Notes: generated from the sequence alone by a model not told the origin. 64,000 nucleotides of DNA from Candidatus Aminicenantes bacterium (GCA_014360015.1 JACIYJ010000004.1:257520-321519); one strand, 5' to 3'; numbered from the stretch's first letter, positions 14,053 through 54,852 are shown. Numbers and translations: made by a program.

Positions 14053-14315
14053 AGCTTTATGATTTTATCACAACAATTAAAATTAATTCAGATTTTTACT
14101 CATTCATTCCGATATATTATGTTCTGATTATTATTTATTCCCAGCCCTGTTCCTCAAGATTTTTTTTAGCTTGTTGCTATAGGACAAATACCACGCAATC
14201 TTAAATAACAACACATTTTTGTTGAATTTTAATATTATTATTAATAAAATTTGATTCAATGTTATATAAGATTACATGGGACCCAGATTTGGATAATAAA
14301 TAAGGGGGAATTTAA

Positions 14316-15356
14316 ATGTCCCGTTATTTAATTACTGGGGGATCTGGTTATTTTGGTTCTGTGCTGGTTGAATATCTGCTTTCGCAGGGCCATGAATGTA
14401 TCAATGTGGATATTTGCCCACAAATTATCTCACATGAATCCTTAAAAACTTTTGAGATCGACATCAGAAATTATGAGGAACTCAAAAACATATTTGAATC
14501 ATGCGGTCCTTTTGATTCAGTCTTCCATCTGGCAGCCATGCTGGCCCACTCAGTTAAAGATAAAAAGGCTTTAATGGAAACAAACGTTCTCGGCACTGAA
14601 AATGTGGTCAAATTATGTGCAGAGTTTGGCATCAAAAACCTGGTTTTCACCTCCAGTAACTGCCTTTGGGCTAAACCATTCGGCCGTCCTGTAACCGAAG
14701 AAGATAAACCGGAACCCGTGGAAGTATATGGACTCTCAAAGATGAAGGCAGAGGAAGTTCTTTTTAACTACGCTGATAGAGTCAATTCTGCCATTCTGCG
14801 TGTGCCAACGATTATAAGCTCTGGTCGTCTCGGACTTCTGGCTATATTGTTTGAATTCATAGAAGAAAACAGAATTGTCTGGATGGTAGGGAAAGGGGAA
14901 AACCATTACCAGTTTATCTATGGACCCGACCTTGCCCAGGCTGCCCTTCTGGCTTCTACAATTAACCACACCCGAATTTATAATGTAGGGAGCGATCAGG
15001 TTAAGAGCTTAAAGGAGATTTATCGGTATGTAATAGACAGGGCCGGTTCAAAGTCTAAAATCAAGCACCTGCCCAGAGTGCCCGCCATTCTGGCTATGAA
15101 AATCGCCCACTTTTTAAAATTATCTCCACTCGGCCCCTACCACTATAAAATGATTGCCGAAAGTTTTGAATTTGATACCTCAAGAATAAAAAACGAATTG
15201 GGCTGGAAGCCAACAAAAACAAACGAAGAAATGCTTTTCGAAGCCTTTCTTTATTACAAAGAGCATAAAGATGAAATCCAAAAAAGGCAAATGGCTTCAG
15301 CCCATAGAAAGCCCGCAGAAATGGGAATAATTAAATTATTGAAATGGCTATCATAA
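14316..15356 (+). CDS. NAD-dependent sugar epimerase/dehydratase (extended SDR)
   Basis: An N-terminal Rossmann motif ITGGSGYFGS is followed by the YxxxK catalytic region (YGLSKMKAE). It is the first gene of the AT-rich island. Confidence 0.8.
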   Translation: MSRYLITGGSGYFGSVLVEYLLSQGHECINVDICPQIISHESLKTFEIDIRNYEELKNIFESCGPFDSVFHLAAMLAHSVKDKKALMETNVLGTENVVKLCAEFGIKNLVFTSSNCLWAKPFGRPVTEEDKPEPVEVYGLSKMKAEEVLFNYADRVNSAILRVPTIISSGRLGLLAILFEFIEENRIVWMVGKGENHYQFIYGPDLAQAALLASTINHTRIYNVGSDQVKSLKEIYRYVIDRAGSKSKIKHLPRVPAILAMKIAHFLKLSPLGPYHYKMIAESFEFDTSRIKNELGWKPTKTNEEMLFEAFLYYKEHKDEIQKRQMASAHRKPAEMGIIKLLKWLS

Positions 15357-17053: not shown

Positions 17054-18444
17054 AAATATTGATAATTGGAGCTGGGCCAGCAGGTCTGACAGCTGGATAT
17101 GAACTGGTTAAAAACGGTCATCAAGTTATCATATTAGAAAAAGAGAGCCAGGTTGGCGGTATTTCCAGAACAATTAACTACAAAGGATATTTATTTGACC
17201 TCGGCGGCCACCGATTTTTTACAAAATATAACGAAGTGGAAAAAATTTGGAAAGAGGTCCTGCCAGATGATTTCTTAAAAAGGCCAAGACTTTCAAGGAT
17301 TTTTTTCAAAGGGAAGTTTTTCTATTACCCGCTAAAACCTTTTAACGCTTTAATAAACCTGGGCCCCGCCAGGGCCGTCATGGCTGTTCTCAGCTACTTC
17401 AAAGCCAGACTTTTTCCATATAAGAACCCGGATACCTTCGAAAAATGGGTTACCAACAAATTTGGCCGGAGTCTTTATAAAATCTTTTTCAAGACCTATA
17501 CCGAAAAGGTATGGGGAATCCCCTGCTCTCAAATTAGTGCAGATTGGGCCGCCCAAAGAATAAAAGGTCTATCCCTGGGAACAGCCATCCTCAATTCTTT
17601 CGGGTTTATAAAAAAGGAAAAAATCAGGACTTTGATAGATGAGTTCTATTATCCCAGGCGCGGACCGGGCCAATTCTGGGAAAAAATGGCCAGTTTGATT
17701 GAAGAGAAAGGAGGCAAAATCATCCTTAATGCAGAGGCCAAAGCAATTTATGCTGAAGATAATTCTGTCATTATAAGTTTTGAAAATAAAGGCCGCCTGG
17801 AAAGCATAAAGGCTGATAGACTAATTACTTCAGCTCCATTAAAAGAAACCGTCCTCAGTTTAAATCCAAAGCCCCCAGAAATAATTTATGAAGCAGCCCA
17901 AGGACTGAATTACAGAGATTTTTTTACTGCCTGCTTGATCATAGATAAAGAAAACATATTCCCGGATAACTGGGTTTATATTCACTCCCCGGAAATAACA
18001 GCCGGCCGCCTCCAGAATTTTAAAAATTGGAGTCCCGAGATGGTCCCGGATCTCAGTAAAACATCATTGGGACTGGAATATTTCTGTTTCCAGACAGACC
18101 CTATCTGGTCAAAACCAGATGTTGAGCTTTTAGAAGTGGCCGCTTCAGACATAGAAAAATTAAAAATGGCCGTCAGAAGTGAGATTTTTGATGGCACAAT
18201 AATCCGAGTCTCAAAAGCTTACCCGGTCTATGACCCTGACTATAGAACAAAAATAGCCATCATAAAAAGCTACCTTCGACAGATTCCAAAAGTTCAGGTG
18301 ATAGGACGGAACGGCCTGCATAGGTATAATAATCAGGACCATTCTATGATGATGGGTATATATGCTGCCCGAAATATAATGGGCGCCGAATTAGATGTTT
18401 GGGACATCAATGTTGAAGAAGAATACCACGAAGAAAAGGCCTAA
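17050..18444 (+). CDS. FAD-dependent oxidoreductase, UDP-galactopyranose mutase (Glf)-like
   Basis: An N-terminal GAGPAGLTAG dinucleotide fold is followed by DLGGHRFF and YTEKVWG (compare UGM GPHIFH and YTIKQWG). Its start overlaps the upstream stop (ATGA). Confidence 0.6.
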   Translation: MKILIIGAGPAGLTAGYELVKNGHQVIILEKESQVGGISRTINYKGYLFDLGGHRFFTKYNEVEKIWKEVLPDDFLKRPRLSRIFFKGKFFYYPLKPFNALINLGPARAVMAVLSYFKARLFPYKNPDTFEKWVTNKFGRSLYKIFFKTYTEKVWGIPCSQISADWAAQRIKGLSLGTAILNSFGFIKKEKIRTLIDEFYYPRRGPGQFWEKMASLIEEKGGKIILNAEAKAIYAEDNSVIISFENKGRLESIKADRLITSAPLKETVLSLNPKPPEIIYEAAQGLNYRDFFTACLIIDKENIFPDNWVYIHSPEITAGRLQNFKNWSPEMVPDLSKTSLGLEYFCFQTDPIWSKPDVELLEVAASDIEKLKMAVRSEIFDGTIIRVSKAYPVYDPDYRTKIAIIKSYLRQIPKVQVIGRNGLHRYNNQDHSMMMGIYAARNIMGAELDVWDINVEEEYHEEKA

Positions 18445-18466
18445 GTTGATACAGCCATAAAAACGC

Positions 18467-40422: not shown

Positions 40423-41024
40423 AAAAACCGGAAAAAAAGTCAAAGAAAACTTCAGGACAAAAAACAGCTGGAATGACTCAGCTACCCCCCAGAATTTCCA
40501 AGGATGAATATTATCTGAGCATTGCCCGGGAAGTCTCCAAGAGAAGCACCTGTTTCCGGCGGTCGATTGGAGCCATCATCGTTCGTGATGATCAGATCAT
40601 TTCCACAGGTTATGTCGGCGCTCCGCGAAAAACCAAAGACAGCTTAGAGCACGGGTTCTGCCTGCGCGACCGGCTGAACATCCCCCACGGCCAGCGTTAT
40701 GAACTCTGCCGCTCGGTCCACGCTGAACAGAACGCCATCATCAATGCGGCCCGGGCGGGCGTCAGCCTCTTAGGCGGAGATATGTTTATCTTCGGCAGCG
40801 ACCCAAAAACCGGTCAGCCGATTGATGCCTTCCCCTGTTTTATCTGTAAAAAAATGATCATCAACGCCGGTTTGAACCGGGTAGTCTGCTCGACTTCCGG
40901 CGGCGGGTTGCATATTTTTTCAGTCGAAGACTGGATTAAAGACTGGCAGGAAAACGATATCCTGGATGATACCCATAAATATGGAATGCCCTATGAAGAA
41001 AAAAATGAAGAAGAAAAGAAATAG
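40419..41024 (+). CDS. dCMP deaminase (ComEB/cytidine-deoxycytidylate deaminase family)
   Basis: The zinc motifs HAEQNAI and PCFICKKMII, plus CxRxxxGxxxVxxD-like upstream elements, are present. Confidence 0.8.
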   Translation: MKKPEKKSKKTSGQKTAGMTQLPPRISKDEYYLSIAREVSKRSTCFRRSIGAIIVRDDQIISTGYVGAPRKTKDSLEHGFCLRDRLNIPHGQRYELCRSVHAEQNAIINAARAGVSLLGGDMFIFGSDPKTGQPIDAFPCFICKKMIINAGLNRVVCSTSGGGLHIFSVEDWIKDWQENDILDDTHKYGMPYEEKNEEEKK

Positions 41025-43209
41025 AACCAAAGAGTCTCTTTTAAGAATGATTCTTTTCTGTTTAATTCTTACTATTTTAGTAGGAATTTTGGCAGCTCTC
41101 AATCTTCCCCGGCAGGAACAACCGGCTTCCACCATCTCTTCCAACCTCCTCCAGCTCCTGGGAATTGAAGTTTCACCGGAGTCTCTCGATTACGTCCAGA
41201 ACAAAACCCAGTTTCAACTTCACACTCTTCTGACAGAACAACGCCATCCTAAAACCTGGAATTTAGGCGAAAGAATCAAGACCGATGTCCAAACCGGGTT
41301 GCATATGCTTTTCTCGGTGGATGAAGACATAGTCTCCCGACTTGATCAGCTCTCCGCTTCACCTGAAGTTCTCCAGGAGCTGTCTTCGGAAATTAAGAAA
41401 ACTATTCTGGACAAAAAAAAGATTTATATCTATGGCTGTGGAGCCACCGGCCGCTTAGCCAAACAGATGGAAAGTACTTTCTGGCGTCCCTTCTGGAATT
41501 CTCTACTTCAGGATAAAACCATCTGGCAGAAAGTAGAAAAAAACCTTGGCCCGGATATCGGGGAAAAACTGATCGGCGAGATGACCGGTGGCGACCGGGC
41601 GTTGATTTCTTCTCTTGAAGGCTTTGAAGACCTACAGCTCATCGGTCGTCTGCAGCTTAAAGACCGCGGAGTAGAGAAAGGCGACCTGGTAATCTGTGTG
41701 ACTGAAGGCGGAGAAACTTCCTCCGTCATCGGCACCATCTTAGCCGCTTTAGACCAGTGGAAAGAAGCCCCGGATTATTCCCCGGCAAAAAGCCGCAGGA
41801 AACTGTATTTTGTCTACAACAACCCTGACGACCGGCTGCGTCCTTTTGACCGCAGTCGTTCGGTGATTGATGAGCCAGGAATAACTAAAATCAACCTAAC
41901 TACCGGACCAATGGCCATCACTGGCTCGACCAGGATGCAGGCCACTACCATCGAGACTTATGTCATCGGTGTCGCTCTCCAGTCAGCCGTTTATGATCTC
42001 CTTCAGGAAATTCTTACGCCTAAGGAGCTCCAGAGAATTGGTTTTGTAAAAAAGTATGAAATCGTAGAAAACCTTAAATCTTTCAGCTCGCTGCTGAGGA
42101 AAATCAAGAACCTTGTTCCCCAGATTGCTCGCTGGACTGAGCTTGAAGCTCGGACCTATGCCGCTAACCATTTTTCCACTTATTTCGCCCAAAAAGCTTT
42201 GATCACCGTTTTCATCGACAGCACGGAAAGAAGCCCGACTTTCAGGCTTTTTCCTCTGGATACAGTCGAAGAGCCAGCTCGGAAGTGCTGGATTCAGGTC
42301 TGGACCCCGGCTAAGGATAAATACCAGGCCTGGCAGAGTTTTCTGGGGCGCCCCTTTCGCGGACTGAAAGAAGAATTTTACCGGCCTGAGTTTGAAGAAA
42401 AAGTTGACGACGCTTATCTCCAAAGAGCGGCTCTCGAAAGTCTGAAAAAAGCTGGTAACAACCAGCAAGACCTTTATGATTTCTCTTTTTCTGAATTCAA
42501 TATCAGCAAAAGAGGACCGAAGCCCGGAGATCTGGGTGTCGTTGCCTGTCTGAGTCCTGAAGAAAATAATTTGTTGGACGGGAATTCTGCTTTCAGTCAA
42601 TTTGTCAATCTTTTCCTGGAAAACGGGGCTAACGTGGTCATGGTGAGCCTCACTGACCTGACTGAGAAAAAAATCGCTGAGCTGGAGAAAAGAGTTTGGA
42701 ATTTCTATCAGGACAGAGCTGGTCGGGACAGCCAGAGGTTGATTCAGATCTGGTTAAACGTTGACCACGACAATGATCCGTTCCAGCTTAAACAGAACAC
42801 CGCTCTCAAAATGGTACTCAATACCCACTCAACTGCGGTTATGGCCAGACTTGGCCGGGTTATCGGCAACACCATGACTAATGTCAGTCCCAGCAACCTG
42901 AAGCTCATCGGCCGGGCCACTTATCTCATTCAGTCGCATGTCAATGATTGTCTGAGAAAGCCTGAATGGATAAAAAAATACGGGCTTAGGCCCCCCATCA
43001 GTTATGGCGAAGCCAATGCGGTTCTGTTCGACTCGATTGCTTTTCTTAAAGAAAAACAGGAAGTTGCCGGTCAGACGGCGGAAGTTGCCCTGTCCATTAT
43101 CCGGATCCTGGAATCACTCCGTCAGAAAAAAGGAGTAACCAACGAAGAAGCTCTGGCTATTGTCCAGAATGTTGGGCTGGCTGAATACCTGAGTAAAGCT
43201 GCTTCTTAA
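41005..43209 (+). CDS. Large membrane-anchored MurQ/GCKR-family (SIS domain) protein with roughly 350 aa C-terminal extension
   Basis: A Lys-rich n-region and TM anchor are followed by YIYGCGATGRLAKQ (compare MurQ GAGTSGRLG) and ITGSTRMQATT (compare MurQ TGSTRLKAGTA). The start is uncertain among the Met codons at 40966, 40981, 40993 and 41005. Confidence 0.55.
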   Translation: MKKKRNRTKESLLRMILFCLILTILVGILAALNLPRQEQPASTISSNLLQLLGIEVSPESLDYVQNKTQFQLHTLLTEQRHPKTWNLGERIKTDVQTGLHMLFSVDEDIVSRLDQLSASPEVLQELSSEIKKTILDKKKIYIYGCGATGRLAKQMESTFWRPFWNSLLQDKTIWQKVEKNLGPDIGEKLIGEMTGGDRALISSLEGFEDLQLIGRLQLKDRGVEKGDLVICVTEGGETSSVIGTILAALDQWKEAPDYSPAKSRRKLYFVYNNPDDRLRPFDRSRSVIDEPGITKINLTTGPMAITGSTRMQATTIETYVIGVALQSAVYDLLQEILTPKELQRIGFVKKYEIVENLKSFSSLLRKIKNLVPQIARWTELEARTYAANHFSTYFAQKALITVFIDSTERSPTFRLFPLDTVEEPARKCWIQVWTPAKDKYQAWQSFLGRPFRGLKEEFYRPEFEEKVDDAYLQRAALESLKKAGNNQQDLYDFSFSEFNISKRGPKPGDLGVVACLSPEENNLLDGNSAFSQFVNLFLENGANVVMVSLTDLTEKKIAELEKRVWNFYQDRAGRDSQRLIQIWLNVDHDNDPFQLKQNTALKMVLNTHSTAVMARLGRVIGNTMTNVSPSNLKLIGRATYLIQSHVNDCLRKPEWIKKYGLRPPISYGEANAVLFDSIAFLKEKQEVAGQTAEVALSIIRILESLRQKKGVTNEEALAIVQNVGLAEYLSKAAS

Positions 43210-44309
43210 ATCCGCTGACCTTCCACCGTGTAACACGGTGGGTGAGGTCTCGTTTTTCTTCGCTTCGGAGTCTTCACCTGCGGATAGACATAAATCTCTC
43301 CGGCGTAATTTCGCATCACCACTTTTTCATCGGAAATTGACTGGACATATTCTGGAATCAATGGAATTTTGCCACCACCACCAGGTGCATCGATGACATA
43401 CTGAGGAACGGCTAAACCAGAAGTCCACCCCCTTAAACCCTGATAAATTTCCAGACCTTTCTCCACTGTCGTCCGGAAATGGTCGGTACCTTTGACATAA
43501 TCAGCCTGGTAGATGTAATAAGGGCGGACCCTGACCGTCAGCAGCTTCTGCATCAACTTTCTCATGGTCAGGACATCATCGTTGATGCCTTTGAGCAGGA
43601 CGGTCTGATTGCCAAGGGGAATTCCAGCATCGGCCAACATATTCAGGGCTCGGGCTGATTCTGGAGTAATTTCATCAGGGTGGTTAAAGTGCACGTTCAT
43701 ATAGAGCGGATGATATTTCTTCAGCATGTTGACCAGCTTTTCGGTGATTCTCTGCGGCAGAAAACAGGGCACTCGACTGCCAATGCGTAGAATTTCAACA
43801 TGGGGAATAGCCCGGAGCCTGCTCAGAATGCTTTCCAGCTTTTCATCACTCAGAATGAGAGGGTCGCCACCGGAGATGATGACATCGCGAACTTCAGGAT
43901 GGTCTTTGATGTAGTCAATCCCATTCTCGATGTAGCGTGGATGAATTTTGGTGACATCGCCAACCTTTCTCTTTCTGGTACAGAAACGACAGTAAGAAGC
44001 ACAACTGTGAGACACCAAGAAGAGCACCCGATCAGGATAACGATGCACGATGCTGGGTACCGGAGAATCCAGGTCTTCTTGGAGTGGGTCGTCTTCGCCC
44101 GAGTTTTCGGCCAGCTCGGCGATATCAGGCACCACCTGCTTGTAGATGGGGTCACCTTTTCTCTTGATTAGACTTGCGTAGTAAGGGGTGATCTGGATCT
44201 TGAATGCCCGGCTGATCTTTCTGACTTCTTCCAGGTCCAGACCGAAACGGTCAGCGATTTCTTCGGGCGTTCGCAAGCTGTCGCGTAAGATTCGTTGCCA
44301 GTCGTCCAT
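43206..44309 (-). CDS. KamA-family radical-SAM 2,3-aminomutase (lysine 2,3-aminomutase-like; AblA/EpmB-sized)
   Basis: CASYCRFCTRK gives the CxxxCxxC cluster in its KamA-specific context. ISGGDPL, PYYIYQAD and a C-terminal region are present. At 367 aa it is shorter than clostridial KamA. Confidence 0.8.
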   Translation of the reverse strand: MDDWQRILRDSLRTPEEIADRFGLDLEEVRKISRAFKIQITPYYASLIKRKGDPIYKQVVPDIAELAENSGEDDPLQEDLDSPVPSIVHRYPDRVLFLVSHSCASYCRFCTRKRKVGDVTKIHPRYIENGIDYIKDHPEVRDVIISGGDPLILSDEKLESILSRLRAIPHVEILRIGSRVPCFLPQRITEKLVNMLKKYHPLYMNVHFNHPDEITPESARALNMLADAGIPLGNQTVLLKGINDDVLTMRKLMQKLLTVRVRPYYIYQADYVKGTDHFRTTVEKGLEIYQGLRGWTSGLAVPQYVIDAPGGGGKIPLIPEYVQSISDEKVVMRNYAGEIYVYPQVKTPKRRKTRPHPPCYTVEGQRI

Positions 44310-44330
44310 TGTCTCCCTTTTTCACTCCTT

Positions 44331-44804
44331 TTAGCGGAAGTATTTGCCGAAAATCACCCGGTCGTCTCCCGGCCGATAAAAATCGGGAATCCGGGCAACT
44401 TCGGTATATCCTAATTTTTCATAAAATTTTCTTGTTGGTTGATACTTGGGCTGGGAAGAGGTTTCAATTAAAATCAACCTCCCACCCTTCCGTCTGACTT
44501 CTTCTTCTAAGTGGCGGACCAGCATCCGGCCATAGCCTTTCCCCTGTTCCGCTGGCGAAACAGCAATCCAGTAAAGGTCCCAGGTACCTTCAGTCAGGGG
44601 CGTGGGGCCATAAGTCATATAGCCAGTTACCTGGCCGGAGTCATTCTCAACCACCACAATAAAATAATCACGCTGGGCCGGATTGGTGAGGTAAATATCG
44701 ATCAGCTCTTCCGCCACCTTGACCTCATCGGGGGTAAAAAAGCCAGTGGCCTGGATGAGGTTGAGCACCGGCTCCCGGTCAGCGCTTACCATTGGTCGAA
44801 GCAT
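44331..44804 (-). CDS. GNAT family N-acetyltransferase
   Basis: The acetyl-CoA binding segment (QGKGYGRMLVRHLEEEVRRKGG) is typical of GNATs. It sits between the aminomutase and ATP-grasp genes with overlapping boundaries. Confidence 0.7.
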   Translation of the reverse strand: MLRPMVSADREPVLNLIQATGFFTPDEVKVAEELIDIYLTNPAQRDYFIVVVENDSGQVTGYMTYGPTPLTEGTWDLYWIAVSPAEQGKGYGRMLVRHLEEEVRRKGGRLILIETSSQPKYQPTRKFYEKLGYTEVARIPDFYRPGDDRVIFGKYFR

Positions 44805-45810
44805 CGGTTATTTTCCTTTTTAAGGCGTTTTGAATCATCATTATCCAGAATTCGGCATAGTCAATGCCCGCAGCTTTTAAGGCCCGGGCATAGCCGGCAT
44901 CCAGGCTGATATCCGGGTTGGGATTAACTTCTAAGATAAAAATTTCACCTTTATTATTCATCCTGAAATCCACCCGGGCATAGTCACGGCAGCCCATAAC
45001 CTTAAAAGCCGTGATGGCCAGAGTCTGAAGTTTTTCGCGGAGTTCATCATCAATTGGTGCCGGGCAAATAGGCGGGGTGGCCTGATAAAGGATATGGTCA
45101 GGGTACCACTTGGCTTCATAGCTGCAGATTCGTGGATAGCCTTCGGGCATGGCTGAAAAATCTATTTCCGAGACGGGCAGGGCTTTTATTTCTTCATTTT
45201 CCAACACAGCCACATTAAACTCTCGTCCATCAATGAACTCTTCTACCAGCGCCGGCTGGCTGTAAGTTTCAATTACTCTTTTAACCTGAGCAGCCAATGC
45301 TTCCCGGTCATAAACAACCGACTCCGGATGGACACCCAGGCTGGCATCTTCAGAATTCGGCTTGACTATGAGCGGGAACCTGAGGTCAACCATTTCGTCG
45401 GCCGAAGTGATTAACTGACTTGGAGCCACAGGCAAATTGAATGAGCTTAGAATAGCCTTGGCTTGATGCTTGTCCTGACAGAGAGCTAAGGTGCGGGAAC
45501 CGTTTCCGGTAAAAGGAATGTGCAAGACTTCCATCACCGCGGCCACATTGGATTCCCACTGCGGCTTCCCAAAAAAGCCTTCACATAAATTGACAATGAC
45601 CTCGGCGTCCAGTTCCTTTATCCGCCGGAGGAAATTGAACATACTTCTCTGTAAAGGAATGAGAGTGGCTTCCAGACCGGCCTGGTTCAGTGTTTCGCAG
45701 ACTACTTCAGCCACCTTAGCCAGTGAATCTTCAGAAACTCTTTCTTTCCGATAGATAAACGGCTCGTAGGTGTTAAAAGCCACGCCCACTTTCAACCGGT
45801 CAATTACCAT
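44779..45810 (-). CDS. ATP-grasp ligase, D-Ala-D-Ala-ligase-like (copy 2)
   Basis: The start is set at the ATG at 45810 (MVIDRLKVGVAF...), 5 nt after the upstream stop. A Ddl-like N-domain, an ATP-grasp core (FPLIVKP...EFIDGREFNVAVL...LEVNPNPD) are present. Confidence 0.75.
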   Translation of the reverse strand: MVIDRLKVGVAFNTYEPFIYRKERVSEDSLAKVAEVVCETLNQAGLEATLIPLQRSMFNFLRRIKELDAEVIVNLCEGFFGKPQWESNVAAVMEVLHIPFTGNGSRTLALCQDKHQAKAILSSFNLPVAPSQLITSADEMVDLRFPLIVKPNSEDASLGVHPESVVYDREALAAQVKRVIETYSQPALVEEFIDGREFNVAVLENEEIKALPVSEIDFSAMPEGYPRICSYEAKWYPDHILYQATPPICPAPIDDELREKLQTLAITAFKVMGCRDYARVDFRMNNKGEIFILEVNPNPDISLDAGYARALKAAGIDYAEFWIMMIQNALKRKITDASTNGKR

Positions 45811-46924
45811 CAGCTCCTCCAATTCTCCTAAGGTTATGAGCAGACAAAAAGTAGTTTTCTTCAAAATCAAGGGGAAGGCCATATCTTTTGCAGGCTTCAA
45901 ACACCACCCGGTTGATAAGCTGATCGTAGCTATAACCAGCAGCCCTGGCTGCTTTGGGTAGACAGGAATTATCTTCAGGATTAGGCAGAATTCCAGGAAG
46001 CGGATTTATTTCCAAGACATTAGGCTCACCGTTTTCATCCAGCCTGAGATCAATCCTGGCCCAATCTTTAATTCGTAAAATCCGGCAGGTTTCTTTAACC
46101 ACACTTTCAATTTTGTTCTGAAGCTCAGCCGATATCTCGGCTGGGCATCTGAAAATCTCCAGCGGTTTATCCGGTGTGTCCCAGACCCATTTAGCTTCAT
46201 AAGAATAAATCGGCTTAGCTCCGGGTGGCAGCTGGCTGTGGTCAATTTCTACAATCGGCAGAATTTCAAGTTCAGGATAATTACCCAGGACTCCAACCGT
46301 GAACTCCCGGCCAGTTAAAAATCTTTCGACAATGGCCGGCTGGTTATAGAGCTTTTTAATCTCAGCTATTTTGAATTTCAGTTCATCCAGGCTTTCGACA
46401 ACTGAATTGTTCTTAATTCCTTTGCTTGAACCTTCATAAAGCGGCTTGACGATGGCTGGAAAAGTTATATCAGCCGGAATTTCTTCATCATCTTCGACCA
46501 CCCAGAATTTGGGGTTCGGAATTCCATAATAAGAAAGAATCTCTTTGGCTCTGGATTTATCCAGACAGATTCCTAAGGTCAGAGGGTCAGAACCGGTATA
46601 AGGGATGTTCAGGACTTCGCAGATGGTGGGAATGTGAGATTCCCGGTTGGGACCGAAAAGCCTTTCAGCGATATTAAAAACTAAATCTGGCCTTTCTTCG
46701 AGAAGTCTCAGATAAGCTTGTTCGTCAGATTCAATTGGGATAACTTGATGGTACTTCTGGAGTGCTTGCTGAACGGCTTTGATCGTTTCATCACTATCGC
46801 ATTCAGCAAGCAAATCAGGTGGAGGTTCTTCGCCCTCCTCGATTTTTTCTTCGTGAGGAAAACGCATAAGGGATTTGGCCATTCCCTGTTTTGAGCTGAA
46901 AAGCAAAGCGATCTTCATTTTCAT
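45800..46924 (-). CDS. ATP-grasp ligase, D-Ala-D-Ala-ligase-like (copy 1)
   Basis: MKIALLFSS..., FPAIVKPLYEGSSKGI, ERFLTGREFTVGVLGN and LEINPLPG show Ddl-family architecture. It is a paralog of the downstream gene. Confidence 0.75.
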   Translation of the reverse strand: MKMKIALLFSSKQGMAKSLMRFPHEEKIEEGEEPPPDLLAECDSDETIKAVQQALQKYHQVIPIESDEQAYLRLLEERPDLVFNIAERLFGPNRESHIPTICEVLNIPYTGSDPLTLGICLDKSRAKEILSYYGIPNPKFWVVEDDEEIPADITFPAIVKPLYEGSSKGIKNNSVVESLDELKFKIAEIKKLYNQPAIVERFLTGREFTVGVLGNYPELEILPIVEIDHSQLPPGAKPIYSYEAKWVWDTPDKPLEIFRCPAEISAELQNKIESVVKETCRILRIKDWARIDLRLDENGEPNVLEINPLPGILPNPEDNSCLPKAARAAGYSYDQLINRVVFEACKRYGLPLDFEENYFLSAHNLRRIGGADGN

Positions 46925-47089
46925 TTCTCTCTGTCTTTAAAATTTTTTATAAACATTCCCCCATTGAATTTTTAAATCGCTGCTTTCAGTCTCATTTCTT
47001 TCATTCATTTTCAATTGTATATATACAGCTTTTTTTCAGGATGTCAATAGATTTTATGGATTTTTATACTTTTTTTTGTATTTTTTTTA

Positions 47090-47110
47090 AAAAAAACCAC
47101 TATTAGTGGT
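47090..47110 (-). terminator. Possible intrinsic terminator at the end of the V-ATPase operon
   Basis: On the minus strand, a short hairpin CCAC-TAATA-GTGG overlaps the atpD stop codon and is followed by TTTTTTTT (plus 47090-47097). The stem is weak. Confidence 0.3.
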
Positions 47111-47720
47111 GGCGAACTATCTCTTTGACCCGCATTAACTGGACCTGATAGGAGCGTTCGATTTCTTCCAGGCGGGAAGAAATTGCCTGGATAGTTTCTT
47201 TGAGACTGGGGATCAAAATGTATTCCAGAGCATTGACTCGTCTTCTGGTGACTTCAATTTCCTTAGCCAGAAGCTCGAGCTTTTTCCAGAGGCTGGCGAA
47301 TTCTAAAAGCTTTGGCAGAAGTTTTTGAAAATGTTTTACCGCCACATCCATCTCGCTTTCAGTCACAAATAAATCGTATGAAGCTAATTCTATGTTTTTT
47401 ACCCTGAATTCAGGAACGGTCAGATTTAACAGTCTTCCTTTCTGCACTTCGAGGAAAAGATTCCCCTCCGGAATTAATTCAGAAATCTCAGCTACGGGCT
47501 GAGAAATCCTGACTGTGGCTAAAGCCCGGGTGATGATTTCAAACTCTCTGTCCACCTCCTGATGAAGAGCACTGAGCTTTCGGGCTGATTCCAGAAATTG
47601 ACGCATCAGCTCTTCCAATTTGTCTTTGAGCAGCTTATGCCCTCTTTCCGCCAGCACCAGACGGCGTCTGAGTCTCAGTAACTCCATCCGGTTGGGATTA
47701 ACTTTTAACTTCATCTTCAA
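47103..47720 (-). CDS. atpD: A/V-type ATPase subunit D
   Basis: MKLKVNPNRMELLRLRRRLVLAERGHKLLKDKLEEL is the canonical V-type subunit D N-terminus. It is the last gene of the operon. Confidence 0.85.
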   Translation of the reverse strand: MKMKLKVNPNRMELLRLRRRLVLAERGHKLLKDKLEELMRQFLESARKLSALHQEVDREFEIITRALATVRISQPVAEISELIPEGNLFLEVQKGRLLNLTVPEFRVKNIELASYDLFVTESEMDVAVKHFQKLLPKLLEFASLWKKLELLAKEIEVTRRRVNALEYILIPSLKETIQAISSRLEEIERSYQVQLMRVKEIVRHH

Positions 47721-47742
47721 CCTCAGCTAATCCAGAAATCGT

Positions 47743-49107
47743 TCAATAATATTTTTCGAGATATTCAGGTCTTATTCTCTTAAGTTCTTTCTTCGGCAGG
47801 AGACGCAGGAGTTTCCAGCCGATTTCAAGGGTCTCTTCTATAGAACGAGCTTCAAACTCTCCCTGCCGGACAAATTCTGTTTCAAACAGATCAGCAAATT
47901 TTAGATATAACCGGTCAAGGTCTGTCAGGGCCGCTTCTCCCAGAATCAGAGCCAGTTCCCGGGCTTCTTTGCCGCGAGCATAGCAGGCAAAAAGCTGGTT
48001 TAAGACATCAGCATGGTCTTCCCGCGTTTTGCCAGCACCGATTCCTTTATCTTTTAAGCGCGAAAGAGACGGCAGAACATCTATCGGCGGATAGATGCCC
48101 TTTCGATGAAGTTCCCGGCTTAGGATAATCTGGCCTTCAGTGATGTAGCCAGTCAGGTCAGGAATGGGATGAGTCTTGTCATCTTCAGGCATGGTCAGAA
48201 TGGGAATCATGGTGATCGAGCCTTTTTTGCCTTTGATTCGGCCGGCACGTTCGTACATCGTAGCTAAGTCGGTGTAGAGATAGCCGGGATAACCACGTCG
48301 TCCGGGAATTTCTTTGCGAGCCGCAGAAATTTCTCGCAGAGCTTCGGCATAGAAGGTCATATCCACCAGAATAACCAGCACATGCATGTCAAGGTCGAAG
48401 GCCAAATATTCAGCACAGGTCAGAGCTAAACGCGGGGTGGCAATTCTTTCGATGGCCGGCTCGTTGGCCAGGTTCAGGAAGAGTACGGCTCTTTCTAAGG
48501 CCCCGGTGTTGCGGAAGTCTTCGATGAAAAAGTTGGCTTCTTCAAAGGTGATGCCCATGGCCCCGAAGACCACGGCAAATTTTTCTTCTTTGCCCAGAAC
48601 TTTGGCCTGACGGGCAATCTGAGCCGCGATTCGTGGATGAGGCAAACCGCTTCCGGAAAAGATCGGCAGTTTCTGACCGCGCACTAAGGGATTCATGCCG
48701 TCGATGGCTGAAATTCCGGTCTGGATAAACTCAGACGGATAATCGCGAGCATCAGGATTTATGGGGCTACCGTTAATGTCCAGCATTTTCCTGGCGATGA
48801 TCTGCGGACCATTGTCTCTTGGTTTACCCGAACCATCGAACACCCGGCCGATGATTTCTTCTGAAACCGGCAATTGCTGAGAACGCCCGAGAAATCGCAC
48901 TCGCGACTTATCAATGTCCAGACCGACCGTGCCTTCAAACACCTGGACTACAGCCTGCTCGGTGGAAACGTCAAGCACGGTTCCGCGACGGATATTACCG
49001 TGCGCGTCTTCGATTTCCACCAGCTCGTTGTATTTAACATCGGCAATCTTTTCCACAATTACCAGCGGTCCAACTATGTTGGAAACAGTTAAGTATTCTT
49101 TATGCAT
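47743..49107 (-). CDS. atpB: A/V-type ATPase subunit B (non-catalytic)
   Basis: The start is set at Met26 of the track ORF ([18 protein letters not shown]), 17 nt after the atpA stop, with a GAGGGTGAGGA RBS. A degenerate P-loop region and the nucleotide-binding fold are present. Confidence 0.9.
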
Positions 49108-49123
49108 TGTCCTCACCCTCAGT

Positions 49124-50869
49124 TTAAAGTGCCTTGAACGAAGCTTCGATTTCTTTTTCCACCTGAAGCAGCGCTTCTTCATCCTCGGGTAAATATTTCA
49201 TCTTGGAGATGCGGTCGCGAACTTCGAGCGAGACGATGGTGCTGAATTCTTTGCCTTCGTCCAGGGCCTGGTTGGCTTTATGATGAAAATAAAGGATATT
49301 ACGGAGCATTAAATATTGTTTTCGAAGTGAAGTGTAAGTGTCCTGTGGATGATAAGCATTCTGGTGGAGGAAATCTTCTCGAATCGACCTGGCTGTTTCC
49401 AGAATCAACCTTTCTTTGAAGGACAGAGATTCAACTCCAATGAGCCGGGCAATTTCCTGAAGTTCAGCTTCAAGCTCCAGTAACTTCATCGCTTCCTGGC
49501 TGAGGTCAACAAAATCTTCAGCCACTTTTTCCGACAGATATTTTTTGAGGGAATCGCGATAAAGTGAATAACTCTGGAGCCAATTGATGGCTGGAAAATG
49601 GCGCATGTTGGCTAAGCGGTCATCAAGAGCCCAGAAAACTTTGACCACCTTCAGCGTGGCCTGAACCACCGGGTCGGATAGGTCACCGCCGGGCGGACTG
49701 ACCGCACCGATGACGCTTAGAGCCCCGATGCGATTATCAGAACCGACACAGACGACTTTACCAGCTCTTTCATAAAACTCTGCCAGACGGCTGGCCAAGT
49801 AAGCCGGATAACCTTCATCACCCGGCATTTCTTCCATTCGGCCTGAAATTTCGCGCAGAGCTTCAGCCCAGCGGGATGAAGAGTCAGCCATCAAAGCCAC
49901 TGAATAGCCCATGTCGCGGAAATACTCGGCGATGGTCATTCCGGTGTAGATAGAAGCTTCGCGGGCAGCCACTGGCATGTTGGAAGTGTTGGCAATGATG
50001 ATGGTCCGCTCTAAAAGGGGCCGGCCGGTGGTCGGGTCTTTAAGTTCGGGGAAACTCAGCAGAAGGTCGGCCACTTCGTTGCCGCGCTCCCCGCAGGCCA
50101 CGTAGACAATAATCTGGGCATCAGACCATTTGGCTAACTGGTGCTGGACCACGGTCTTACCGCTGCCAAAAGGACCCGGTACACAGGCGGTCCCGCCCTT
50201 GGCTAAAGGAAAGAGCGTGTCCAGAATTCTCTGGCCGGTGACTAAGGGTTCAAGCGGCATCAGCCGCTCTTTGACCGGACGCTGTTTACGCACTGGCCAT
50301 ACTTGGAACAGGTTGAGTTCTCTTATTTCTCCCGAATCTTTTTTCACCCGACAGACCACCTCGGTCACTAAGAACTCGCCTTCCAGAATCTCAACGATTT
50401 CTCCTCCGCTGTTTTCGGGAACCAGAATGCGGTGTTGAATGAGCGGTGTTTCCTGGACATAGCCGATGATATCTCCGGGGATAACCCGCTCGCCCTTTTT
50501 CTTGAGCGGGGTGAATTTCCAGCGCCTCTCACGGCTCAGGGCTGGCACCTCAATGCCCCTGGAAACAAAATCGCCGTACTGGGCTCGGATGATATCAAGC
50601 GGCCGCTGAATTCCGTCATAGATCGAGCCCAGAAGCCCTGGCCCCAGCTCAACCGACAGCGGTTTTTCAGTTAAAACAACAGGCTCACCAGGGCCGACGC
50701 CGGTTGTATCTTCGTAAACCTGGATGTAAGCCTGGTCGTTTTTGAGCTCGATTATTTCACCGATCAGGCCTAAATGGCCAACCTTGACCATATCGTACAT
50801 TTTGGCCCCGAGACATTCTGAGGCTACCACTAAGGGGCCGGCAACTCGAATAATCTTACCTTGTCTCAT
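49124..50869 (-). CDS. atpA: A/V-type ATPase catalytic subunit A
   Basis: The start is set at [16 protein letters not shown] (a GAGGAAGGA RBS 6 nt upstream). Walker A reads GPFGSGKT, and the non-homologous insert typical of V/A-type A subunits is present. Confidence 0.9.
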
Positions 50870-51206
50870 GGTCATTCCTTCCTCTGGTAAAAAGTGCATC
50901 TGAACCAGTGGCTTTAATCGAAAGTTCTCTCAGCAATTTTTCCACTGATTCTGAAATTTCTCGGTAATCAGAAAAACCAACACAGACCGGAGAAAACTTC
51001 CGGCTGAGTTCAGCGATTTCAGTTTTTAACGGCTCCAGCCAGTTTTCCTGAATCAGACAGAGGGTATATTTTTCATCAACCACTTGAGCCAGCATAGCTT
51101 TAGCTTCTCCCACCGAAGTCGGTGAAAAAATAGAAAGACCGAATACTCGAAGCGGAGAGCACAAATCTTTATCTCCAATGATAGCTATCCGGCTTGTCTC
51201 AGACAT
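50856..51206 (-). CDS. atpF: A/V-type ATPase subunit F
   Basis: A small (116 aa) alpha/beta protein occupies the F position between C and A; its N-terminus is IAIIGDKDL. Confidence 0.7.
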   Translation of the reverse strand: MSETSRIAIIGDKDLCSPLRVFGLSIFSPTSVGEAKAMLAQVVDEKYTLCLIQENWLEPLKTEIAELSRKFSPVCVGFSDYREISESVEKLLRELSIKATGSDALFTRGRNDHETR

Positions 51207-51987
51207 AGGTCTGACTTATCCTTTCTTTTAAGATCGAGGCCGGAACTTGAAGCAGTTTTCCGGCCAGGACCATCCGAACCAGCCTCAACTCCTGTTTTTT
51301 GGCCAGCCCATAGGCAAAAACTGGTTCGGGCCCAAACGTTATTCTTTTGGCTCTTTTTAAATAATTCATCAGCAGGCTTTCGATTTCCCTTTCTAATGCC
51401 ACAAAGCTTTCTTTTGAGGTCAAAAAATCCACCCCCTGCTTCCAGACATCGAGGTAAGGAGTGGAGCGAATAACCTGGCCGAATTCTTCCAGCTCGGAGT
51501 CATAGTTTTCGGTGAATAATTTTTTCTCTAAGTTTCCGCCTAAGATAAACTTTTGCTCAAACTGGCTGGCCGGCCACTCGAGATAACGGCAGCGCAGGAA
51601 AAGCTTTAGGTTAGAGAGGTCAATCCGCTGACGGAAATAATCTTGGATGAATAGATTGCTTACTCCTGTCAGGCTTGAAGCAATTTCTTTTATTTCTTCG
51701 GCTGCCTGATAATAATGGTAAAAATCTTTTTCCAGAAAAAGCTCCTGGAGGGTGAAGTCCAGGCCAATTTTTTCTTTCAGCAGAAATTTCTCCAGCTGGT
51801 CAGAGGTTCGGATTTCCAAAAGCTCTTCCCCGAATTTACCCGCATCTGAAATCAGCTCAACAGCTCTGTCCAGACTCGGAGCTTCAGCCGCTTCCCGAAA
51901 AACCGGGTAGGGAATTAAATAGTTTTCCAGCGCCCGGATTCGGCCTACGGCAAAAGCATAATCTAAAGGAGAAAACCTTCCAGCCAT
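51199..51987 (-). CDS. atpC: A/V-type ATPase subunit C (d-type central stalk/socket)
   Basis: A 262 aa helical protein lies between E and F in the conserved operon order. Confidence 0.65.
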   Translation of the reverse strand: MAGRFSPLDYAFAVGRIRALENYLIPYPVFREAAEAPSLDRAVELISDAGKFGEELLEIRTSDQLEKFLLKEKIGLDFTLQELFLEKDFYHYYQAAEEIKEIASSLTGVSNLFIQDYFRQRIDLSNLKLFLRCRYLEWPASQFEQKFILGGNLEKKLFTENYDSELEEFGQVIRSTPYLDVWKQGVDFLTSKESFVALEREIESLLMNYLKRAKRITFGPEPVFAYGLAKKQELRLVRMVLAGKLLQVPASILKERISQTYV

Positions 51988-51988
51988 T

Positions 51989-52423
51989 TTAGATTTTCAA
52001 CCACTCCAAAATGTCATTTTCAACTTCCTGACCAAGCTCAATCAAGATGCGGTCATAAGATAAAGTTTCTTCCTTGATTCCGTCGCGAGAGACAATTTCT
52101 TTTTTTAATCTGGCTTTTTTAAGCTCTTCTTTTTGAAGAGCGGCCTTCAGCACCTGGTCGATCAATTCGCGTCTGGTGCGAAGTAGCTCCATCCTCTTCT
52201 GCAGTTGAGCCTGAGTCAGGATCCGCTTAGCTTCCAGCTTAGCTTCATTTTCAGCCTGCTTCAGGATGGCTCCGGCCTGTTCTCGAGCCCTCTGCTCAGC
52301 TTCCTGCTTTATGGCTTCAGCTTTTTCCCTGGCTTCTTCTAAGATGGCTGCGACTTCCTGCTGTGCCTCCCGGTCAATCTTCTCCAGAATTTTTTCCAGA
52401 CTCATTTCAGCCTCAGCCCGCAA
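51989..52423 (-). CDS. atpE: A/V-type ATPase subunit E (peripheral stalk)
   Basis: An A/E/K-rich coiled-coil protein lies directly after the proteolipid gene. At 144 aa it is short for subunit E. Confidence 0.6.
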   Translation of the reverse strand: MRAEAEMSLEKILEKIDREAQQEVAAILEEAREKAEAIKQEAEQRAREQAGAILKQAENEAKLEAKRILTQAQLQKRMELLRTRRELIDQVLKAALQKEELKKARLKKEIVSRDGIKEETLSYDRILIELGQEVENDILEWLKI

Positions 52424-52900
<477 letters not shown>

Positions 52901-52935
52901 CTACCTCCTGATGGAGTCCAAAATCTTTATGTTTA

Positions 52936-54852
52936 TCATCTGATAAACTCAACGTATTTATTCTCTAATTTAAATGGTTTAAAGGGTTTGCCCCCAGCCT
53001 GATAAAACCTGGTGAAAAACTCGACAAACTGAAGCCTCATAGAGTGAACAAAAGCTCCAAGGAAACTGATGCCCAGGTTAAAAAGATGGCCACCGACAAA
53101 AATCAAAACGGCTAACAACCAGCCAACAAAAGGAATCTTCCAGGCAATCTGGACTAAGGAGTTGACCACCATGGCAATCACCCCCGTGGAAAGCCCGAGG
53201 GCCAGAATACGAGAGTAAGAAAGAGTGTCAGCTAAATAGCCCGATATACCATAGAGGGCATAAAGACCACTGAAAAATCTGGCTAAAGGATTGCGAGAAG
53301 ATGAGGTAAAAAAGACAATGCCAGCGGCACCAACAAGAGTCAGAATCCCGAAAACAGGCTGTTTTAAAACGAGATAAGCCAGAAGCGATGGCAGAAGCAG
53401 AAGCCATCCTCCTTTAACTGCAATCGCTCCGACCTTATTCCCTGCACGATATTCCTTGACCAGGCTGAGAAAAGTTGATAGCAGCACCTGAATAAAACCC
53501 AGCGCTAAAGACAGAATCATAAAGGGAATTGGATCTTTAAGTGGGTCGATGAGCAGCAAAGATTTTATCGGATAACCAAACCAGCCACCGACCAGAGTGC
53601 CAAGGATAACGTTGGATAACCCTAAATAAAAAAGCAGGCGCATAAAGAGCTTGGTATCACCATGGGGTTTAGCCAGTTTAAGATAAAGTAAGCTCAAAAG
53701 AGCCACCAGCAAACCATAACCGGCTTCACTGACGCATAGCCCGACAAACACGAAGAAAAACGGAGCTAAATAGATAGTTGGTTCTATTGTCCGTGGTTGG
53801 GGCAGACCATAAAGACTGGTGATGATTTCAAAAGGCTTGATGATTTCCGGATTCTCTAAAATGACCGGTGCCTGTTCCACTTCTTCTGGCAGCGGGTCTC
53901 TGAGATTTAGATAAATATGCTCGGAAAATTTATGGACTTTGCGGGAAAAGTTCTCAGCTTCAGCCGCCGGTATCCAGCCGGCTAAGCAGCTGGTTTTTTC
54001 TGTCAAACCGGCCAGACTGGCTCCAATAACCTTTTCTTTCTCGTTGAGCAGGACGTCATAGACAGCCATTAGGGCCGGCCGATGAACGGCAAAACCAGCC
54101 ATCTCTTTTTCCAGGCGTCTTATCAGCTCAAACTTTTCAGCTTTTTTCTGGCTGAGCTCGCTCAGGATGTCAAACACTTTTTCATCTTTTTTTGCCCGGC
54201 TGATGTATGGTGCCAGAGAAATAAAATTAGCCTTAATCTCAGAAAATATTTTTTCGACTTCTTCTCTGGCGCTAAAGTGGTAGATGAGAAGAATGAAGAT
54301 TCGGCTTTTCTCTTTAGAAATTACCGAAATCTGCGAAGGGAGTTCCAGGCTCTCGGTGATAATCTTCTCCAAATCCTGAGGCTGAACCTGAACGAGCTGC
54401 ACCTCACAGCGATCAAACCCGGTTAGCTCTTTTAAGGGAATATTCAACGCCAGGAGCGGTTTGAGGAATTCCTCTTCCTTTTCTATCTGTTTGATCTCCT
54501 GAAGAAGCTCATTCTTGCGGGCTTCAAGTTTTTCGTAATCTTCTACCACTTTCTGGTAGCCAAAATCGAGCAGTGCCTTCCTCAGGCTGGCTGAATATTT
54601 AGGCTTCTGGGCCAGGAGTTTATCCAAACCTTTTTTCTCATCTGTCTCAGGCAGATTCTGCAGGAGATGATTTATCCGGTTAAGCCAGCGCTCATATTCT
54701 GAGGGGTCAGTTTCCGATGGTTCAAGTTTTAAATCTTCATAAGGGAGAGAATCGAGCTGGGCCAGACCCAACTCCTGAAGATAGGACAGAAAGCTTTCCA
54801 GCTCTTCCTTTGGAAGCAGAATCTCGAAACGCTTTACCGGAGAGATGGCCAT
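52936..54852 (-). CDS. atpI: A/V-type ATPase subunit I (a)
   Basis: A roughly 300 aa cytoplasmic coiled-coil N-domain is followed by a 7-8 TM C-domain, 638 aa in all, in the I position. Confidence 0.8.
   Translation of the reverse strand: MAISPVKRFEILLPKEELESFLSYLQELGLAQLDSLPYEDLKLEPSETDPSEYERWLNRINHLLQNLPETDEKKGLDKLLAQKPKYSASLRKALLDFGYQKVVEDYEKLEARKNELLQEIKQIEKEEEFLKPLLALNIPLKELTGFDRCEVQLVQVQPQDLEKIITESLELPSQISVISKEKSRIFILLIYHFSAREEVEKIFSEIKANFISLAPYISRAKKDEKVFDILSELSQKKAEKFELIRRLEKEMAGFAVHRPALMAVYDVLLNEKEKVIGASLAGLTEKTSCLAGWIPAAEAENFSRKVHKFSEHIYLNLRDPLPEEVEQAPVILENPEIIKPFEIITSLYGLPQPRTIEPTIYLAPFFFVFVGLCVSEAGYGLLVALLSLLYLKLAKPHGDTKLFMRLLFYLGLSNVILGTLVGGWFGYPIKSLLLIDPLKDPIPFMILSLALGFIQVLLSTFLSLVKEYRAGNKVGAIAVKGGWLLLLPSLLAYLVLKQPVFGILTLVGAAGIVFFTSSSRNPLARFFSGLYALYGISGYLADTLSYSRILALGLSTGVIAMVVNSLVQIAWKIPFVGWLLAVLIFVGGHLFNLGISFLGAFVHSMRLQFVEFFTRFYQAGGKPFKPFKLENKYVEFIR

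Follow-up and report, generated by a model that had tools for sequence, protein, structure and literature searches.

Why would a radical-SAM aminomutase of the KamA type be encoded together with two enzymes that resemble D-Ala-D-Ala ligases? The question is raised by four genes on the minus strand of a 64,000-nucleotide (nt) stretch of DNA from Candidatus Aminicenantes bacterium (GCA_014360015.1 JACIYJ010000004.1:257520-321519; hereafter, the window), which code, in the order of transcription, for two paralogous Ddl-like ATP-grasp ligases (ligase 1 and ligase 2), a GNAT-family acyltransferase and KamA. An earlier reading of the nucleotide sequence made without database searches (the sequence-only reading) had described this gene content, including a CASYCRFCTRK motif in KamA, and tight packing with spacers of 5-25 nt or overlaps. 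Pfam and NCBIfam agree on the content, and the junctions consist of a 21-nt spacer between kamA and the GNAT gene, a 26-nt overlap between the GNAT and ligase 2 genes, and an 11-nt overlap between the two ligase genes. Given the long open reading frames (ORFs) and the very strong family matches, the four-gene pattern is not due to chance. The interpretation that we favor, with a confidence somewhat above even, is that these genes comprise an operon that is complete in itself, has its own promoter and serves the biosynthesis of a small cytoplasmic amide derived from beta-lysine, the best reading of the product being an N-acetylated (perhaps only transiently) beta-lysine oligo-amide. The module combines known enzyme families in a new way and is real, conserved and apparently uncharacterized.

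The kamA product scores 315 bits against the KamA family model TIGR00238 (cut-off 199), also matches Radical_SAM and LAM_C, and carries the CASYCRFCTRK motif from residue 103 on. Comparison with the crystallized lysine 2,3-aminomutase from Clostridium (PDB 2A5H; E-value 7e-124, ~55% identity) reveals that C125, C129, C132, R134, D293, D330 and K337 (2A5H numbering; C103, C107, C110, R112, D270, D307 and K314 in the window protein) are invariant or missing from at most one of the 68 cluster members. We take these residues to be the iron-sulfur cluster cysteines, the ligand of the substrate carboxylate (Arg134), the ligands of the epsilon-ammonium group (Asp293 and Asp330) and the pyridoxal phosphate (PLP) lysine (Lys337). 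The retention of all lysine-binding residues strongly argues that the substrate is lysine and that KamA converts L-lysine to beta-lysine. The sequence-only reading had recognized the aminomutase and had left its substrate open among Lys, Glu and Arg; D293, D330, R134 and K337 now single out lysine. The preservation of both aspartates, together with the low scores against the equivalog models of glutamate 2,3-aminomutase (441 bits, cut-off 650) and its arginine counterpart (384 bits, cut-off 600), argues against the latter two specificities. The top equivalog is lys_2_3_AblA (TIGR03820), with 487.5 bits against a cut-off of 525.4, a shortfall that is partly explained by the shortness of the window enzyme, which stops ~50 residues before the end of 2A5H. 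Position C268 of 2A5H, presumably a zinc ligand, is occupied by D, N, E or S in the cluster KamAs.

Lack of the C-terminal domain and a predicted action on lysine are features that KamA shares with EpmB, the short KamA-family enzyme of the elongation factor P (EF-P) modification pathway. The two are nevertheless distinct: KamA is only ~33% identical to E. coli EpmB and reaches 244 bits with the EpmB model TIGR03821 (cut-off 369), and neither an EpmA-like ligase nor efp is found nearby. These comparisons bear on the possibility that the module modifies a protein, for example, by EpmA-independent attachment of beta-lysine to EF-P or another translation factor. KamA-type enzymes do supply beta-lysine for EF-P in gamma-proteobacteria, and in some genomes described below a related ligase pair has in its neighborhood a deoxyhypusine-synthase-like (DHS-like) gene whose product scores just below the dhys cut-off (300.1 vs 304.25 bits). 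However, efp is absent from the window and from the ~85 loci examined, the EpmB model is not reached, and ATP-grasp enzymes of the Ddl clade are known for small substrates whereas those that modify proteins are of the RimK/TTL type. We therefore consider protein modification very improbable.

Both ligases contain the Pfam domain Dala_Dala_lig_C (E-values 5e-34 and 3e-34 for ligase 1 and ligase 2, respectively) and share 37% identity across 293 residues. They have the same fold as, and belong to one sub-clade with, the solved Ddl and VanA structures (E-values 1e-25 to 1e-30), and VanA is the best PDB match of ligase 1 (E-value 8e-30). All solved or curated relatives of the two proteins are D-Ala-D-Ala, D-Ala-D-Lac or D-Ala-D-Ser ligases. 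Unlike these enzymes, however, ligase 1 and ligase 2 score 179 and 161 bits, respectively, with the Ddl subfamily models (cut-off 243), fall under every curated Ddl and Van cut-off, with all equivalogs far from being reached, and contain an insertion in the omega-loop region.

The differences extend to the active site, as indicated by an alignment that joins E. coli DdlB (the numbering of which is used below) with 80 ligase-1 and 73 ligase-2 sequences. The residues involved in ATP and Mg binding and phosphoryl transfer (K97, K144, E180, E187, K215, R255, D257, E270 and N272) are all invariant in the ligase-1 sequences; in the ligase-2 sequences, no change is seen at K97, K144, E187, K215, R255 or D257, and 70-72 of the 73 retain E180, E270 and N272. 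Every sequence of either family has two substitutions, Y216W and H63E. The remaining specificity positions distinguish the paralogs: in ligase 1, S150 and S281 are unchanged and the substitution L282C is present, whereas ligase 2 has S150A, G276D, S281A and L282G. The retained catalytic set, the altered specificity positions and the scores below the cut-offs jointly lead us to predict that both proteins are active amide ligases other than Ddl. Ser281 is presumably the residue that binds the acceptor carboxylate in Ddl, and its retention suggests that the acceptor of ligase 1 would be of the amino-acid type. In ligase 2, the loss of this carboxylate site (S281A and L282G) combined with the gain of an aspartate (G276D) suggests an amine without a neighboring carboxylate; the epsilon-amine of beta-lysine and polyamine-like amines would be examples.

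Given their closest relatives, the ligases could also be envisaged as cell-wall enzymes, either Ddl paralogs or enzymes that add beta-lysine or another diamine to peptidoglycan precursors; ATP-grasp enzymes that decorate such precursors, for instance, D-aspartate ligase, indeed exist. The invariant Y216W, the changes at S281 and L282 of ligase 2 and the failure to reach any Ddl or Van cut-off speak against this option, as does the genomic context: the window-type ligases form a conserved pair with no mur/dcw genes around them, and no peptidoglycan-synthesis family is among the 25 most frequent Pfam families of the 126 nearest neighboring genes from 36 loci outside the Aminicenantes/KSB1 group. 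A role in the cell wall thus appears quite unlikely.

The third enzyme matches Acetyltransf_1 (PF00583; E-value 4e-16) and contains the acetyl-CoA loop QGKGYG, the G.G core of which recurs in no less than 90% of the 73 sequences from the window and 72 loci. It stays under all NCBIfam equivalogs, including RimI (48.9 bits, cut-off 86). The sequence-only reading had invoked the logic of AblB, the GNAT that acetylates beta-lysine. This part of the reading is not supported: with 20.6 bits against the AblB model TIGR03827 (cut-off 205.1) and 157 amino acids against the 266 positions of the model, the GNAT is not an AblB. It strongly matches one solved structure, PDB 2R7H (144 bits, E-value 2.7e-41), which is annotated as a 'putative D-alanine N-acetyltransferase of GNAT family' and was solved by structural genomics from a Desulfovibrio/Oleidesulfovibrio strain. 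A gene 99% identical to that of 2R7H is located in an operon with the order KamA, ligase, ligase, GNAT; although 2R7H and the window GNAT belong to the same family, the former thus derives from a rearranged module with diverged ligases and a long-form KamA. This context provides a functional lead for a solved structure that hitherto had no assigned role. A GNAT of the same family also occurs by itself in a Desulfobacterales metagenome-assembled genome (MAG), where it overlaps a gene for an RF-1-domain (peptidyl-tRNA-hydrolase-like) protein; neither KamA nor ligases were found at that locus.

AblA and AblB make N-epsilon-acetyl-beta-lysine in methanogens, and the kamA-yodP genes of Bacillus subtilis are a comparable pair. 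The operon in the window resembles these systems in the adjacency of a lysine 2,3-aminomutase gene and a GNAT gene, in the best curated match of KamA being AblA and in the conservation of the lysine-binding residues; it differs in that the GNAT belongs to another, much shorter family, the aminomutase lacks the C-terminal domain and has C268 replaced, and the operon includes two ATP-grasp ligases as integral components. The AblA/AblB logic of a KamA-GNAT pair has also been cited for Pelobacter (PMC3543383).

From these assignments, the following pathway can be proposed. By radical-SAM/PLP chemistry, the short-form KamA would turn L-lysine into beta-lysine (3,6-diaminohexanoate). Each of the diverged Ddl-family ligases would then make one amide bond, with an acyl-phosphate attacked by an amine, and the GNAT would acetylate one amine, yielding either the final N-acetylated product or a protecting group. 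Thus, we infer two ATP-dependent amide bond formations and one N-acetylation. The product would be a di- or tri-amide that contains beta-lysine, an organic cation or zwitterion that might serve as a compatible solute or a polyamine-like molecule. The amide partners, the regiochemistry and the physiological role are speculative. The amines of beta-lysine are spaced as in the 1,4-diamine putrescine, which would fit two ligases that address two amines.

Two known systems embody parts of this logic. In the synthesis of N-acetylglutaminylglutamine amide (NAGGN) by Ngg, a fused GNAT and ATP-grasp protein, and AsnO, as in other dipeptide solute pathways that pair a GNAT with an ATP-grasp enzyme, N-acetylation and ATP-grasp amide formation yield a small soluble peptide-like molecule; going by the description of that system, the combination of acetylation with ATP-grasp amide formation is shared, whereas in our case the proteins are separate, there are two ligases and a beta-amino acid building block, and no amidotransferase is encoded nearby. 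In the biosynthesis of staphyloferrin A and rhizoferrin, a PLP enzyme provides an unusual diamine or diamino acid, the two amines of which are acylated by two amide ligases. This parallels the arrangement of one scaffold-supplying enzyme and two dedicated ligases, but the siderophore ligases are NIS synthetases rather than ATP-grasp enzymes, and the module in question is not accompanied by transporter or receptor genes.

The presence of two ATP-grasp ligases and a GNAT is, moreover, the composition of microviridin clusters, so that a microviridin-like system for a peptide that is synthesized on the ribosome and modified after translation (RiPP) has to be considered. There is, however, no conserved precursor ORF in the leader (the sole small ORF, of 25 amino acids, is broken by indels in relatives), and the ligases are of the Ddl type, not the RimK/MdnC type. 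Another conceivable role for KamA is the first step of lysine fermentation (PMC8674449), but lysine-fermentation families (5,6-aminomutase, 3,5-diaminohexanoate dehydrogenase and the cleavage enzyme) are missing from the Pfam families of the flanking genes. The retention by KamA of the ligands of the carboxylate and epsilon-ammonium groups of free lysine also counts against these two explanations, which we regard, taken together, as extremely improbable.

A genome scan with ligase 1 as the query yielded 80 loci, 71 of which include enough downstream sequence to be judged. All four genes are present in 65 of the 71, in the order ligase 1, ligase 2, GNAT, kamA in 62, so that the co-conservation at issue since the sequence-only reading holds. 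According to the record titles, the carriers represent about ten bacterial groups, among them Aminicenantes/Acidobacteriota, KSB1, Victivallales/Lentisphaerae, Planctomycetota, Caldithrix/Calditrichaceae (Calditrichota-type), Bacteroidota, Ignavibacteriota, Chlorobiaceae and Neomarinimicrobiota, and the source records are, judging by the same titles, for the most part MAGs from fresh water, soil, peat, groundwater, digesters and hot springs. A MAG of Victivallis vadensis is one of the carriers, and OY969762.1 is another carrier record. Close homologs, at 86-92% identity, come from Candidatus Saccharicenans and Aminicenantes MAGs; across phyla, identity to the window proteins is 53-70% for KamA, 52-59% for ligase 1, 36-47% for ligase 2 and 41-56% for the GNAT. 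In the protein collection, relatives of each of the three query proteins number in the thousands; for KamA and the ligases, these counts also take in ordinary aminomutases and Ddl-family enzymes.

This conservation is pertinent to another alternative, namely that the ligases are functionally unrelated to KamA and the GNAT and are merely their neighbors. KamA and the GNAT could by themselves follow the AblA/AblB logic, and the best NCBIfam match of KamA is the AblA equivalog. The distance of the GNAT from AblB counts against such a split, as do the gene overlaps and the persistent association of the ligases with KamA and the GNAT in two gene orders and many phyla; the mostly non-saline source records also fit it poorly. 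Mere adjacency is accordingly unlikely to a marked degree.

The second gene order (KamA, ligase, ligase, GNAT) is found in cultured Desulfovibrionales. In Desulfovibrio mangrovi (CP104208.1), a sigma-54 activator gene is followed by genes for a long-form KamA, two Ddl-like proteins and a GNAT; the contig that bears the near-identical counterpart of 2R7H has the same arrangement, and two further metagenome contigs show the KamA, ligase, ligase, GNAT order. In one locus (L091), a gene for a 174-amino-acid cysteine-rich protein of the CxxCxxCC type (PF03692, a faint match) is inserted between kamA and the first ligase gene. A publication on the sigma-54 regulome of Desulfovibrio vulgaris and another on salt evolution make no mention of the module genes.

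No additional gene is conserved with the module across phyla: clustering of 1701 flanking ORFs recovered only within-lineage synteny, and a Pfam census of the 126 nearest neighbors in the 36 loci outside the Aminicenantes/KSB1 group revealed no family common across phyla, nor was a conserved mur or transporter gene found in these censuses. The exceptions are sporadic. Sigma-54 activator genes lie upstream of the module in several lineages. A gene for an M24 metallopeptidase (~399 amino acids) is located ~100-300 nt after kamA in six loci of Ignavibacteriota and Bacteroidota (L050, L054, L062, L067, L070 and L078), the copies being 54-58% identical to one another; it could be a turnover enzyme or a case of mere synteny. 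In two Planctomycetota loci, the module is followed by a gene for a decarboxylase of the LysA/ODC fold, which weakly matches the model of FslC, the N-citrylornithine decarboxylase of rhizoferrin biosynthesis (72 bits, cut-off 500). A further exception is a fusion protein of ~580-600 amino acids that consists of a weakly recognizable N-terminal GNAT-like region and an HDAC-type deacetylase domain. The gene is located just after the module in L074 and L049, and farther downstream in L066; in D. mangrovi, it follows the GNAT gene, and in L091 it lies within the operon. The copies from L074, L091 and D. mangrovi are 57-60% identical to one another. The pairing of an acetyltransferase with a recurring deacetylase suggests that the acetyl group may be transient (protecting or regulatory) and need not be part of the final product. 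The accessory genes hint at amine or polyamine-like chemistry.

Several observations weigh against the proposed pathway. To begin with, no product has been observed, the chemistry downstream of KamA is deduced from residues and neighbors, and the acceptor types depend on structural knowledge of DdlB combined with the sequence alignment. In three loci with room for kamA, there is none adjacent; in one of them, a complete Aminicenantes chromosome (L042), an IS200-like transposase gene takes its place, directly after the GNAT gene. The ligases of the rearranged module are only 25-36% identical to those of the window and have other pocket residues (in ligase A, position 216 is A, E or R and position 282 is D; ligase B has W216 and C276), such that the product may differ in detail between the two module types. 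Finally, as the main caveat, in four Thermodesulfobacteriota loci (GCA_040960625.1 is an example of such a genome), orthologs of both ligases, with ligase 1 54-57% identical to that of the window and identical signature residues, lack a neighboring KamA or GNAT up to a distance of 8 kb, as far as the available flanks extend. Ligases with the same pockets and without these partners in the vicinity imply that beta-lysine is possibly not their obligatory or direct substrate, unless KamA is encoded elsewhere in these genomes.

The gene order in these four loci, where the 5' flank is present, is agmatinase, pyruvoyl arginine decarboxylase, ligase 1, ligase 2, SAM methyltransferase and a small membrane protein; the DHS-like gene heads the operon in L083 and L085 and was not detected in L082 and L071, and genes for GT4 glycosyltransferases follow where the flank is present. 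One could conclude that the ligase pair acts on polyamines or other diamines, acylating the primary amines of a 1,4-diamine skeleton or joining carboxylates to them, rather than on beta-lysine as such, with KamA (beta-lysine being a 1,4-diamine with a carboxymethyl substituent) or homospermidine/putrescine genes only supplying alternative scaffolds and the GNAT or the methyltransferase capping the product. The spacing between the polyamine genes and the ligases (~20-50 nt in three of the four loci), the Planctomycetota decarboxylase, the recurrence of the HDAC-type deacetylase and the extra acidic residues in the pockets (H63E in both ligases and additionally G276D in ligase 2) are all in accord with this scheme. 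The polyamine neighbors are, however, confined to a single lineage, the gap before the ligases in L082 is 461 nt, lineage-specific synteny can be accidental, as illustrated by the V-ATPase operon beside the window cluster, and KamA and the GNAT are the partners in 65 of the 71 loci. On balance, this scheme is unlikely.

A synthesis of the two lines of evidence within the beta-lysine pathway is conceivable, and we offer it tentatively, as something we would not expect to prevail. The products would be beta-lysine oligo-amide cations ('pseudo-polyamines') that are widespread in anaerobes of many phyla, the ligase pair being plugged onto either a lysine aminomutase or a homospermidine-type pathway, and the GNAT and the deacetylase performing protecting-group chemistry; the module would then be a new polyamine-like branch rather than an osmolyte pathway. 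The osmolyte role is possible and less secure than first thought. It is favored by the KamA-GNAT logic, a Na/Ca exchanger gene beside the module in Calditrichota-type loci and an OsmC gene in one flank; the predominance of carriers from sources that, by their record titles, are non-saline is to be set against it.

The layout of the region (Table 1) indicates how the operon is likely to be expressed. The gene for subunit D of a V/A-type ATPase, the last of an operon for subunits D, B, A, F, C, E and an I-like subunit that lies directly upstream, ends in a terminator-like hairpin, and the AT-rich region between this hairpin and the operon carries a promoter-like element. When the window is aligned with nine loci of the Saccharicenans type, neither TTGACA nor the TGTATATAT core varies, whereas the flanking bases drift; the element was missed by a consensus scanner because its second hexamer ends in A. 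With its own conserved promoter and a terminator upstream, the four-gene set is very probably a separate transcription unit. A 16-nt motif in the 5' leader, ACTGAAAGCRGCGATT, is possibly an operator or another protein-binding site. The start of ligase 2 was placed at an ATG because its homologs begin there; the longest ORF extends to a TTG at 45900.

Table 1. Positions of the features discussed. Coordinates without a locus label refer to the window, counted from its first letter; the others are preceded by the label of the respective locus.
Feature	Position	Strand	Description
Ligase 1 gene	45800-46924	minus	374 amino acids; predicted Ddl-family ATP-grasp amide ligase; first gene of the operon
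Ligase 2 gene	44779-45810	minus	343 amino acids from the ATG at 45810; predicted Ddl-family ATP-grasp amide ligase
GNAT gene	44331-44804	minus	157 amino acids; single-domain acyl-CoA N-acyltransferase
kamA	43206-44309	minus	367 amino acids; short-form KamA-type L-lysine 2,3-aminomutase; predicted beta-lysine maker
Leader motif	46975-46990	minus	16 nt, in the 5' leader of the operon; near-invariant in 9 of 10 aligned upstream regions
Promoter-like element	47020-47047	minus	TTGACA 47047-47042, 16-nt spacer, TATATA 47025-47020 preceded by TG; read directly
Terminator-like hairpin with T-run	47096-47110	minus	end of the upstream V-ATPase D gene; separates two transcription units
GNAT/HDAC fusion genes	L087 9629-11386; L091 6211-8004; L074 11831-13576; L066 13658-15400; L049 11958-12803		L087 is D. 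mangrovi
Polyamine-linked ligase loci	L083 5449-11139; L085 5422-11103; L082 6071-11138; L071 6502-11134		Thermodesulfobacteriota
IS200-like transposase region	L042 10670-11608	minus	in place of kamA, complete Aminicenantes chromosome
Cysteine-rich protein gene	L091 3671-4195		between kamA and the first ligase gene
Lone GNAT	L089 2634-3567		Desulfobacterales MAG; overlaps RF-1-domain gene
-24/-12 element	L087 5457		D. mangrovi
V/A-type ATPase operon	47103-54852	minus	directly upstream of the cluster
747-amino-acid protein gene	40966-43209	plus	convergent with kamA
S-adenosylmethionine synthetase gene	8360-9565	minus	archaeal type
SAM-I (S-box) riboswitch	9736-9853	minus	directly upstream of the synthetase gene
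Low-GC stretch	14000-20500		GC fraction 0.37-0.38

Other types of control were considered and set aside. RNAalifold applied to eight leaders yielded a consensus of 3 pairs with -0.8 kcal/mol; the Rfam matches in the window at the gathering threshold (two tRNAs and a SAM riboswitch) are all located elsewhere than upstream of the operon, and a permissive Rfam search of the operon leader returned no match at E<=1. A riboswitch or structured leader is rejected on these grounds. Sigma-54 promoters were found neither in the window nor in the other loci tested, except for D. mangrovi and L069; with a good -24/-12 element in these two loci only, we do not claim sigma-54 control for the window operon.

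The V-ATPase operon is found next to the cluster mainly in loci of the Saccharicenans type (~16-20, among them L036 and L038), and this adjacency looks like lineage synteny without a functional link. On the other side of the cluster, the convergent gene that overlaps the stop of kamA by 4 nt encodes a 747-amino-acid protein that shows, besides a GKRP-type SIS domain, two weak matches to models of MurNAc-6-phosphate etherase; this family is seen downstream of the module in 30 loci of the Aminicenantes/KSB1-type group.

To our knowledge, beta-lysine occurs in few settings in bacteria and archaea: as an osmolyte precursor, a fermentation intermediate, a modifier of EF-P and a constituent of a few actinomycete antibiotics. 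The module described here points to a further, unrecognized use of beta-lysine and to a metabolite of major lineages, as yet uncultured, that inhabit sediments, soils, digesters and guts. That the sequence-only reading was not aware of a characterized pathway of this composition agrees with our literature searches, which found none, and full-text searches found no description of the gene cluster; we allow a modest chance that one exists beyond these searches. The presence of the module in cultured, genetically tractable sulfate reducers makes the question directly approachable. If the link to polyamines is true, the way in which polyamine sufficiency is inferred from genomes would change.

Two other regions of the window deserve a brief comment. 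The SAM-I (S-box) riboswitch (62 bits, gathering score 44.4) directly precedes a gene for an archaeal-type S-adenosylmethionine synthetase (PF01941; E-value 2e-144), that is, a bacterial riboswitch is combined with an archaeal-type enzyme. A low-GC stretch (0.37-0.38 vs ~0.46 elsewhere), which may be an acquired island, encodes an NAD-dependent epimerase, a flavin amine-oxidase-like protein, a sulfatase and a 569-amino-acid protein that matches no Pfam family.

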